In this document: positions 21,379 to 31,034 of the stretch, piece after piece
How the letters are laid out: each line of letters begins with the position of its first letter
Numbering within the stretch: position 1 is the stretch's first letter
Assembly (NCBI GenBank): GCA_024720975.1
Contig: JANJXX010000002.1
Coordinates: 96,001 to 160,000 of the forward strand
DNA: 64,000 nt
Direction of reading: 5' to 3'
Source: Thermoproteota archaeon
Lineage (GTDB): Archaea > Asgardarchaeota > Njordarchaeia > Njordarchaeales > Panguiarchaeaceae
Translations under genes and position numbers: made by a program
Notes under the pieces: model-generated
The model's database searches: none
Told to the model about the DNA's origin: nothing
What the model saw: only the letters and a program-made list of their open reading frames with translations

Positions 21379-21720
21379 ATGCCTGAAAAGGCAGATGAAA
21401 AAATCCAAAAGCTTGAGCTAATTCAAAAAGAGCAAGTCAAATTCGTGGAGCTTCCTGATGTAGTAGAGCTATACTTTGAGAGGGCTGATAAACCCGGCCG
21501 TGGAATAACAATAACAGTGCCAATAACGGAGCTGTTCGAGAACATCGTGCGTGAGGCTGCCAAGAAGCTCAACTTCAAGAATACACAAGTTGGAGTTCTA
21601 GGAGGTTCTACTCCAGTATCCTTCGTAGGAAAAACTGTTAAAGATGTTATCAAAGAGACATCAAGCGTAAACTTTCAGATTGCTTCCGCTGAAATGCTTG
21701 GGATAACTGGAAGCACTTAA
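21379..21720 (+). CDS. UFM1-like ubiquitin-fold protein
   Basis: By-eye alignment to UFM1: VPITELFENIVREAA vs [21 protein letters not shown] vs QTAGNV, C-terminal LG-ITGST vs VG-SC. Confidence 0.6.
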   Translation: MPEKADEKIQKLELIQKEQVKFVELPDVVELYFERADKPGRGITITVPITELFENIVREAAKKLNFKNTQVGVLGGSTPVSFVGKTVKDVIKETSSVNFQIASAEMLGITGST

Positions 21721-21795
21721 TCTTAGCTTCTTTATTTGATTTCGATTTCTGATTCATGATTAGAGCAAACTTTAAGCGTCCCATTAGTATTTCTG

Positions 21796-22518
21796 GTGGC
21801 AACTCGGTTGGCCGTTCACATTGATAACATACTTTGGAGAACCATAACGAAGATTATTAAAGGTGACACCAACGAGCGAGCTTTTTACCTAGTTGGTTTT
21901 TCTGATGGAGAAAATTACTATGTTATAGAGAGCTTTGAGATTCAATATAAAACTAAAACTCAAGCGTGCATAGTCTCTGATCCGTACGGACGGTTAATAC
22001 TATCAAGTTCACTTCCCGCTGGAGTTAGTATAATAGGTGTAAGTCACAGTCATCCGTTTGACTATAGCAATGAAAAGCCAAAGCCATCAACCATGGATTT
22101 GAGTTTTGTCTACAATTACAAGGAGGAGATAATAATGACAATTAATTCCACTGGGAAAGCGAGTGCTGTGAGATTCTCGGAAGATCTTGAGGAACTCGAT
22201 ATAAAAGTTAGAGACTTCCCAGAAAAACCCAAAGTCCTTCGCATCAAGGGTGTGTACATGGTATTTCCCTGGTGGGCATCTGACGAGATGATAAGACTCA
22301 AAGCACCAAGACTTTATGGAGAAATTCTTTATCGGCTACACTTTCACGCTTACCTTAAAGGAAAAAGAAAGATTGTCGTGCCTCCATATGAGTGGTTCTT
22401 CGTGAGACAAAAGTATGCAATACCCCACGTAGCTTTTGGCAAACTTCGAAATATCGCAAAAGAATATTTACTGAACAATAGTGTCACTAAATTTGCGCAG
22501 AATGTTCATTCCCAATAA
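21796..22518 (+). CDS. JAB/MPN+ (JAMM) metalloprotease with C-terminal extension
   Basis: Catalytic Glu in NERAFYLVG and the HSHP...PSTMD JAMM motif. Confidence 0.8.
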   Translation: MATRLAVHIDNILWRTITKIIKGDTNERAFYLVGFSDGENYYVIESFEIQYKTKTQACIVSDPYGRLILSSSLPAGVSIIGVSHSHPFDYSNEKPKPSTMDLSFVYNYKEEIIMTINSTGKASAVRFSEDLEELDIKVRDFPEKPKVLRIKGVYMVFPWWASDEMIRLKAPRLYGEILYRLHFHAYLKGKRKIVVPPYEWFFVRQKYAIPHVAFGKLRNIAKEYLLNNSVTKFAQNVHSQ

Positions 22519-23010
22519 ATATCGTTTACATTTATCGCAAAAGTCATCAAACTTTAGATCAAGCTCTAGCAAGGAGTTCGCAAAAACCATTACACAACGC
22601 CTATTGCAATGCAAAAGACCGAAGACATGTCCTAACTCATGTTTAATTGTTTTTGAGACCCTTGCATGATAAAGGTTCTGGTCTGGGCTTTTGAGTCTCC
22701 ATGTACTTATAACGCATCCCACAAATGGCAGCGCCACGCCAAAAACGTAATTCAAACCCGGAACAAAGATATCCCTATGTAGCATCACCATGAACAAGCC
22801 ATCTATGATGCCGCTAGCTACTACATTTAGTAGATTCTCCGCATTGTATTGCCTGCGATAACGGTCATAGGCGATTTTTAGATTTATCTTAAGGGGTGCT
22901 AACTTTAGTCTCAAGTTAAAAAATTTCTCAATCGTTTCAACGGCGAATTCTTTGGCTAAATCATCAACAGATTCATCAACAAGCAAGTAGAGATCTCTAG
23001 TACTTCTCAT
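22468..23010 (-). CDS. amzA: Archaemetzincin (M54 Zn protease)
   Basis: RRQYNA, LNYVFG, HELGHVFGLLHC...CVM...S...D...FCDKC. Confidence 0.92.
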   Translation of the reverse strand: MRSTRDLYLLVDESVDDLAKEFAVETIEKFFNLRLKLAPLKINLKIAYDRYRRQYNAENLLNVVASGIIDGLFMVMLHRDIFVPGLNYVFGVALPFVGCVISTWRLKSPDQNLYHARVSKTIKHELGHVFGLLHCNRRCVMVFANSLLELDLKFDDFCDKCKRYLLGMNILRKFSDTIVQ

Positions 23011-30780: not shown

Positions 30781-30969
30781 CTACGGTGGAAATAGATACC
30801 ACATCGCGATGACGCCAAAAATCAAGAGAAATGCTGCGATAAAGACAAATCTTGGTCCAACTTTAGCGCCCTCAGGTGTTTCTTCATAGAATATAAGCAA
30901 TCCTGCACCTGTTGGTGGTGTAGATAACCTATCACGAGACTTCTTCTTTTTCTCATCTTGCTTGGGCAT
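30781..30969 (-). CDS. secG: Preprotein translocase subunit Sec61beta
   Basis: PPTGAGLLIFYEE...KVGP plus C-terminal TM. GGAGG SD before MPKQ. Confidence 0.9.
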   Translation of the reverse strand: MPKQDEKKKKSRDRLSTPPTGAGLLIFYEETPEGAKVGPRFVFIAAFLLIFGVIAMWYLFPP

Positions 30970-31034
30970 TTTTGACCTCCTGCTTGAGTAGGTATTATAC
31001 TTAAGCATTGATTTAATTAAAGGCATCACGAAAA

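Follow-up and report, generated by a model that had tools for sequence, protein, structure and literature searches.

Does a UFMylation-like pathway exist outside eukaryotes? The question is raised by two adjacent genes in a 64,000-nucleotide stretch of contig JANJXX010000002.1 (assembly GCA_024720975.1, positions 96,001 to 160,000; hereafter the window) from a hot-spring Asgard archaeon of the order Njordarchaeales, whose genome (G000) is 81% complete. The first gene encodes a small protein, here called the tag, which the original prediction had aligned by eye with the ubiquitin-like (Ubl) modifier UFM1, and the second a protein of the JAMM type. Direct sequence reading bore out that both open reading frames (ORFs) lie on the same strand, 75 nt apart:

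21379-21720 (+): ORF of 113 amino acids (aa), candidate precursor of a UFM1-like modifier (the tag)
21721-21795: 75-nt spacer between the tag and JAMM genes, from direct sequence reading
21796-22518 (+): ORF of 240 aa, JAMM protein

The tag adopts a β-grasp fold and carries an invariant glycine, its gene is linked to that of the JAMM protein, catalytic motifs are intact, and a UBA5-like E1 and a UFC1-like E2 are present in the same genome. Together, this suggests that a UFMylation-like pathway probably does exist outside eukaryotes. The predicted module of a UFM1-like tag and a JAMM protease is thus confirmed as an observation and supported as an interpretation, the checks on fold, glycine, adjacency and E1/E2 genes having turned up nothing that refutes it.

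What marks the tag as a candidate modifier is its C-terminus. The protein is organized as follows:

Residues ~1-25: N-terminal extension, Lys/Glu-rich and poorly conserved
Residues 26-108: β-grasp core
21700-21702 (+): codon of the invariant Gly108
21703-21717 (+): five-residue tail, ITGST
21718-21720 (+): stop codon

As had been predicted, the direct reading gives ...AEMLG108 followed by ITGST, that is, a single glycine plus a short tail and no diglycine. The sequence ...ASAEMLG is invariant across 15 close homologues, ten of which terminate precisely at the glycine, the others extending by DS, AP or, in the window, ITGST. The glycine is likewise conserved in a set of 26 homologues with identities down to ~24%, where Gly108 is among just three invariant columns; it is preceded by Leu, Ile or Ala and followed by nothing, by 1–6 residues or by an entire fused protein. 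At the sequence level, this pattern is the signature of a modifier needing a free C-terminal glycine. UFM1, too, has a single glycine after a hydrophobic residue, whereas ubiquitin and the SAMPs differ. This bears on a first alternative, namely that the locus encodes a generic SAMP/Urm1-like Ubl-JAMM pair: a sulfur carrier and/or SAMP-like modifier, served by a MoeB/UbaA-type E1 and no E2, in which the likeness to UFM1 reflects the shared β-grasp and the E2 serves something else. The Leu-single Gly end of the tag is unlike the Gly-Gly of SAMPs, ThiS and MoaD. The tag ORF belongs to no Pfam or NCBIfam family, and its sole named homologue comes from 'Candidatus Njordarchaeota'.

Is the tag closer to UFM1 than to other Ubl proteins? 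Its structure is indeed a β-grasp, and in a structural ranking by Z UFM1 stands above every other Ubl class listed, which again argues against a SAMP/Urm1-like protein. By Foldseek E-value, the best matches are LC3/ATG8 chains (5.6e-4), and ATG8 also has a single terminal glycine and an N-terminal extension, so that an ATG8/LC3-like modifier destined for lipid conjugation has to be considered. However, the LC3/ATG8 alignments have root-mean-square deviations of mostly 12–14 Å (6 Å at best), driven by the low-confidence N-terminus, and there is no LC3 chain among the top 50 by Z. With a linked E1 that matches UBA5 (6e-27) far above ATG7 (8e-11) and an E2 that is UFC1-like rather than ATG3-like, we consider an ATG8-like role very improbable indeed.

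The protein encoded downstream has two parts:

21796-22230 (+): JAMM/MPN+ zinc metalloprotease domain, residues ~1-145, with E27, H84-S-H86, S98 and D101
22231-22518 (+): C-terminal domain, residues ~146-240, mixed α/β by secondary structure

The E...HSH...S..D motif noticed in the original prediction is intact: E27, H84-S85-H86, S98 and D101 are invariant in ten orthologues from two genera, which were derived from synteny, a word-indexed homologue search having returned just two matches. The canonical JAMM motif, E...H-x-H-x(7)-S-x-x-D, has a spacer of seven residues; the H86–S98 spacer comprises 11 residues in the window and 9–11 across the family. Structural matches confirm the MPN fold, most of them ending at about residue 145, and the C-terminal domain is without a clear solved relative. 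The window protein has no Pfam match; with 25.5 bits, one orthologue (L010) passes the Prok-JAB cut-off of 25, and the family profile matches AfJAMM and JAMM1 at about 3-5e-4. The closest solved protease by structure is Pyrococcus JAMM1, which acts on SAMP2, a point in favour of a SAMP-like pair.

Could this protease act on the tag? We predicted the complex of the JAMM protein with tag residues 22–113 in three runs, alongside three controls. The complex score was 0.72 (0.67–0.74 in the three runs), compared with 0.00 for the best of the three controls, and passed a mark that 58 of 80 solved complexes attain, as against 2 of 110 mismatched pairs, in a calibration that is rough because own alignments were used. 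The runs share at least 90% of contacts, with partner pLDDT of at least 83. In the model, tag residues 102–110, which span Gly108, contact E27, H84, H86 and S98–D101, and residues 176–217 of the JAMM C-terminal domain contact the tag body. The tag C-terminus is thereby predicted to sit in the JAMM active site.

A conjugation system would further require activating and transferring enzymes. The window encodes neither an E1 nor an E2, as originally stated; a search for UBA5- and UFC1-like genes found both on other contigs (C27 and C11) of the same genome:

G000:C27:56427-57191: UBA5-like E1, 255 aa, orthologous to the E1 linked to the tag in the sister genus
G000:C11:295562-296131: UFC1-like E2, 191 aa, with Cys139; weak match to UFC1 as a single protein

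The E1 matches ThiF at 1.6e-41, and in the PDB it is matched best by five UBA5 sequences (~6e-27), followed by MoeB (2e-14) and ATG7 (8e-11); the alignment to UBA5 spans both the motif around the catalytic Cys (SLPTTM context) and the zinc site (CxxC). Eukaryotic UBA5 has a C-terminal tail that binds UFM1 and UFC1, which the 255-aa archaeal protein lacks. For the E2, a profile built from 12 orthologues of three genera retrieved 26 UFC1 sequences from the PDB (2e-7 to 1e-4) and no other protein with E below 0.5, in an alignment that includes the catalytic Cys (Cys139), a downstream Trp and G-[LI]-A-H. Pfam UFC1 was matched by six of the 12 members (best 4.4e-7), the copy of the window genome scoring 17.9 bits, below the cut-off of 25. 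A UFC1-like E2 with its catalytic Cys occurs in 11 of the 12 tag-bearing genomes, which a SAMP/Urm1-like system would not lead one to expect. A full-length MoeB-like ThiF protein is encoded on contig C25, as such a system could use, yet the E1 adjacent to the tag in the sister genus matches UBA5 better than MoeB by 13 orders of magnitude.

The neighbours of these enzymes recur as well. A protein of 110–127 aa with a CxxC...CxxC pattern (L019:2076-2444 (-)) invariably precedes the UFC1-like E2, and this Cys-rich zinc-finger protein could be an E3-like partner. In the genus of the window, the E2 is followed by a protein of 249–255 aa of no family (L019:740-1486 (-)). The UBA5-like E1, for its part, is adjoined in both genera by a coiled-coil protein of 121–143 aa that has a conserved motif, ETPRGxVPT, belongs to no family and could be an E1 partner not described so far:

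L014:2270-2671 (-): ETPRGxVPT coiled-coil protein
L008:814-1176 (+): the same
L009:1919-2320 (-): the same
L007:2779-3210 (-): the same

How are these genes distributed? The tag is present in five of five genomes of the window's genus and seven of seven of a sister genus in the same order; elsewhere in the phylum, a single-protein query recovered it from none of the genomes searched. Linkage to the JAMM gene extends well beyond the window: in nine of the 12 tag-bearing genomes the JAMM gene directly follows the tag. Within the sister genus, a ThiF-type UBA5-like E1 lies no more than 3 kb from the tag in four genomes (G008, G009, G012 and G013), and a second, paralogous operon of a JAMM (300–400 aa), a UBA5-like E1 and a tag occurs in G006, G009, G011 and G012:

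G006:C151:11759-14546: paralogous JAMM-E1-tag operon
G012:C167:21015-23723: the same
G009:C1:23811-26561: the same
L012: the same

Tags of these operons end ...DVLG or ...VLGL. Since the paralogous operon also exists, the association of tag, E1 and JAMM occurs twice; with the queries used, the operon was not found in the genus of the window.

We propose the following mechanism. The product of the 113-aa gene would be a precursor of a UFM1-type modifier, which the adjacent JAMM would cut after Gly108, taking off ITGST here and fused Sec61β in some relatives. The UBA5-like E1 of C27 would then adenylate and thioesterify the exposed Gly108, after which the tag would move to Cys139 of the UFC1-like E2 of C11 and from there onto target lysines. 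Most likely, the JAMM would also strip the tag from modified proteins: the gene pair is kept even though the tags of most relatives lack a tail, so that the protease probably reverses conjugation too. We infer cleavage, activation, transfer and targets, and consider a UFM1-type cascade with a JAMM protease, taken as a whole, to be likely.

Which observations weigh against such a cascade? First, by phmmer or by two family profiles, the tag has no UFM1 match among PDB sequences, and Pfam Ufm1 (PF03671) matched none of the 26 family members scanned with it, at E values of up to 10. Used in a six-frame search over 151 genomes of the phylum, the same model gave nothing above its cut-off of 27 bits; the best score, 16.9 bits, fell on a further tag relative in genome G005. 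This protein, from a third genus, ends ...IVPRDLLG, aligns with the tag family in hhalign (probability 97.5%, E 5.7e-12) and provides one weak sequence bridge between the tag family and UFM1. The by-eye alignment of the original prediction captures a likeness that is real at the fold level; as the Pfam and PDB searches (single protein and profiles) give no UFM1 match, it lacks statistical support from sequence. Second, the lead of UFM1 over other Ubl folds is small, ~2–3 Z units, and the complex score may reflect likeness to JAMM-Ubl complexes already solved (5lda, 6fnn) rather than constitute independent proof. Third, E1 and E2 lie on other contigs, so that their pairing with the tag rests on synteny in the sister genus and on family identity, and UBA5-like E1s occur in prokaryotes without UFM1 (PMC10183829). 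Fourth, the JAMM must have some role besides precursor processing, as there is no tail to remove in most relatives. Finally, no convincing E3 component (UFL1, DDRGK1 or CDK5RAP3) was found in the window genome; at 81% completeness, this and other absences are provisional. The missing sequence link between tag and UFM1 would also suit a SAMP/Urm1-like pair. Against the terminal glycine, the structural ranking and the E1 and E2 described above, however, we regard that alternative as improbable.

Further components of a UFM1-type cascade were searched for as well. Peptidase_C78 (UFSP, PF07910) had no match in the 81% complete window genome, which fits a metalloprotease in that role; it is a JAMM gene that adjoins the tag instead. 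DDRGK searches returned non-specific matches, the control being positive in 9 of 14 genomes as well. The UFL1 search yielded one weak E3_UFM1_ligase match (E 0.004–0.009), to a 450-aa protein on C11 without PDB support. This protein (L018:1123-2472 (-)) is encoded ~5 kb from a pair of genes for a 479-aa ThiF E1 and a 220-aa JAB protein (L015:1411-3502 (-)), an arrangement that belongs to a separate Ubl system of the window genome.

Where might the archaeal system act? In eukaryotes, ribosomes at the Sec61 translocon are what UFMylation acts on, which makes a linkage between tag and Sec61β genes suggestive. The window itself contains a Sec61β gene at a distance:

30781-31029 (-): Sec61β gene, from tblastn and ORF; ~9 kb from the tag, on the opposite strand and in no shared operon with it

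Within the sister genus, in contrast to this arrangement, Sec61β directly follows the tag-JAMM pair in four genomes and directly follows the tag in one:

L006, L007, L010, L011 and L009: tag/Sec61β loci of five sister-genus genomes

In G012, the tag is fused in frame to Sec61β (...MLG-APP-Met...; L008:1225-1800 (+)), Pfam Sec61_beta matching the fusion at E 1.8e-12. A second tag::Sec61β fusion (L033:976-1506 (+)) comes from another metagenome, is less than 50% identical and shares the same TIM-gene context. For G009 and G012, where Sec61β follows or is fused to the tag, the search showed just the paralogous JAMM (E about 3e-22). These operons and fusions provide a first genomic hint as to where such an archaeal system might act, although the linkage is confined to one lineage and may be a mere accident of gene order. 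They also lend themselves to another explanation, in which the tag is a ubiquitin-fold domain that does not undergo conjugation (such as a module for docking or regulation, or an N-terminal, chaperone-like leader of Sec61β) and the JAMM just frees fusions or cuts other substrates; a 368-aa fusion and a tandem form of the tag without a terminal glycine fit this as well. Most family members, however, are free-standing and end at the invariant glycine, which a docking domain does not need, and E1, E2 and protease co-occur across the order. We therefore hold a non-conjugated domain to be quite improbable, and less so the SAMP/Urm1-like pair.

How does the proposed UFM1-type cascade compare with known systems? 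The eukaryotic pathway comprises UFM1, the E1 UBA5, the E2 UFC1, UFSP1/2 with ODR4 and the E3 complex UFL1-DDRGK1-CDK5RAP3. Alike are the tag, whose fold is closest to UFM1 and whose single C-terminal glycine is followed by a short tail to be removed (cleavage being predicted for the window tag); the small E1, consisting of the adenylation domain only and bearing the UBA5 catalytic Cys motif; and the E2, with the catalytic Cys and the W...G-[LI]-A-H signature of UFC1. By contrast, the archaeal protease is a JAMM metalloprotease with intact motif instead of a C78 cysteine protease, the tag has a ~25-residue N-terminal extension and is missed by Pfam Ufm1, and a small zinc-finger protein invariably accompanies the E2. 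The other obvious comparison is with SAMP-JAMM systems (Haloferax HvJAMM1; Pyrococcus JAMM1-SAMP2, PDB 5lda) and the ubiquitin-Rpn11 operon of Caldiarchaeum (PDB 6fnn; PMC6043591), where a JAMM/MPN+ protein is likewise encoded with a β-grasp modifier; here, too, the modifier tail is predicted to lie in the zinc site, and one protease may serve both processing and deconjugation. Unlike the tag, however, the modifiers of these systems carry a terminal Gly-Gly and do not resemble UFM1, and SAMPs have a MoeB-type E1 and no E2. The window JAMM differs from the respective proteases by an extra C-terminal domain of ~95 residues and by more residues separating the His pair from Ser-x-x-Asp.

Asgard Ufm1 homologues have already been published. 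Koestlbacher et al. (bioRxiv 10.1101/2024.07.03.601958; Nat Microbiol 2026, PMC12962969) report Ufm1 homologues in nine Asgard clades that were detected by structure; like our tag, these are UFM1-fold proteins detectable by structure and not by sequence. The text searched reports the tag alone: UBA5 and UFC1 go unmentioned in that of the published article, conjugation and a protease in that of the preprint, and Njordarchaeales in that of either (PMC12962969). The window tag, in contrast, is linked to three enzymes: a protease, an E1 and an E2. Picchianti et al. (2023) described UFM1, UFC1 and UFSP2 as confined to eukaryotes and UBA5 as also occurring in prokaryotes (PMC10183829), and we found no report of an archaeal UFC1 in the literature searched. 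What is new here is the probable UFM1-type cascade with a JAMM protease, its four genes dispersed in a Njordarchaeal genome. UFMylation being regarded as eukaryotic, a single Asgard genome that encodes tag, E1, E2 and a protease of a different catalytic class brings the origin of the pathway within reach of direct tests on four small thermostable proteins. It also suggests a reason why an inactive protein of MPN fold still accompanies the eukaryotic deUFMylase. The archaeal conjugation system may be ancestral, as the original prediction considered.

A bolder scenario concerns ODR4. According to PMC10952357 (citing Ha et al. 2016), ODR4 and the MPN domain of C. elegans UfSP represent the inactive MPN-fold partner of the eukaryotic deUFMylase; ODR4 is without catalytic residues, whereas the window JAMM retains all of them. 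An archaeal UFM1-type system might already have operated at the protein translocon, with an active JAMM as the ancestor of this inactive MPN module. If true, the conserved tag-JAMM-Sec61β operon and the two independent tag::Sec61β fusions of the sister lineages would be relics of a pre-eukaryotic link between UFM1 and the translocon, and the cysteine protease UFSP a later replacement of the catalytic function. We consider this scenario unlikely.

At the locus itself, the tag-JAMM pair sits in a housekeeping context, with genes for succinyl-CoA synthetase subunits upstream and, downstream, a convergent gene for an archaemetzincin (Peptidase_M54) and one for a GPN-type GTPase. The archaemetzincin gene (22468-23010 (-); Peptidase_M54, E 1.8e-21) shares 51 nt at its 3′ end with the convergent JAMM gene. 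Immediately past the stop codon of the tag, the 75-nt spacer contains a T-rich tract; a partial terminator and/or a promoter of its own for the protease gene may lie here. Near-identical DNA for this stretch is found in hot-spring metagenomes of several studies; contigs from two other such studies run from the last part of the tag gene across the spacer into the JAMM gene with zero differences, so the gene pair is not an assembly artefact.

The tag profile further matched proteins of other architectures. P0020 (368 aa) consists of a tag followed by a ~260-aa domain of no known type, P0023 is a tandem di-tag without a terminal glycine, and P0019 and P0025 are giant proteins of 3427 and 4057 aa with 34 and 11 matching stretches, respectively. 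P0029, a distant relative of 88 aa that ends ...DMLGR, is encoded 4 nt upstream of a gene for the ESCRT-II protein EAP30 (L034:857-1784).
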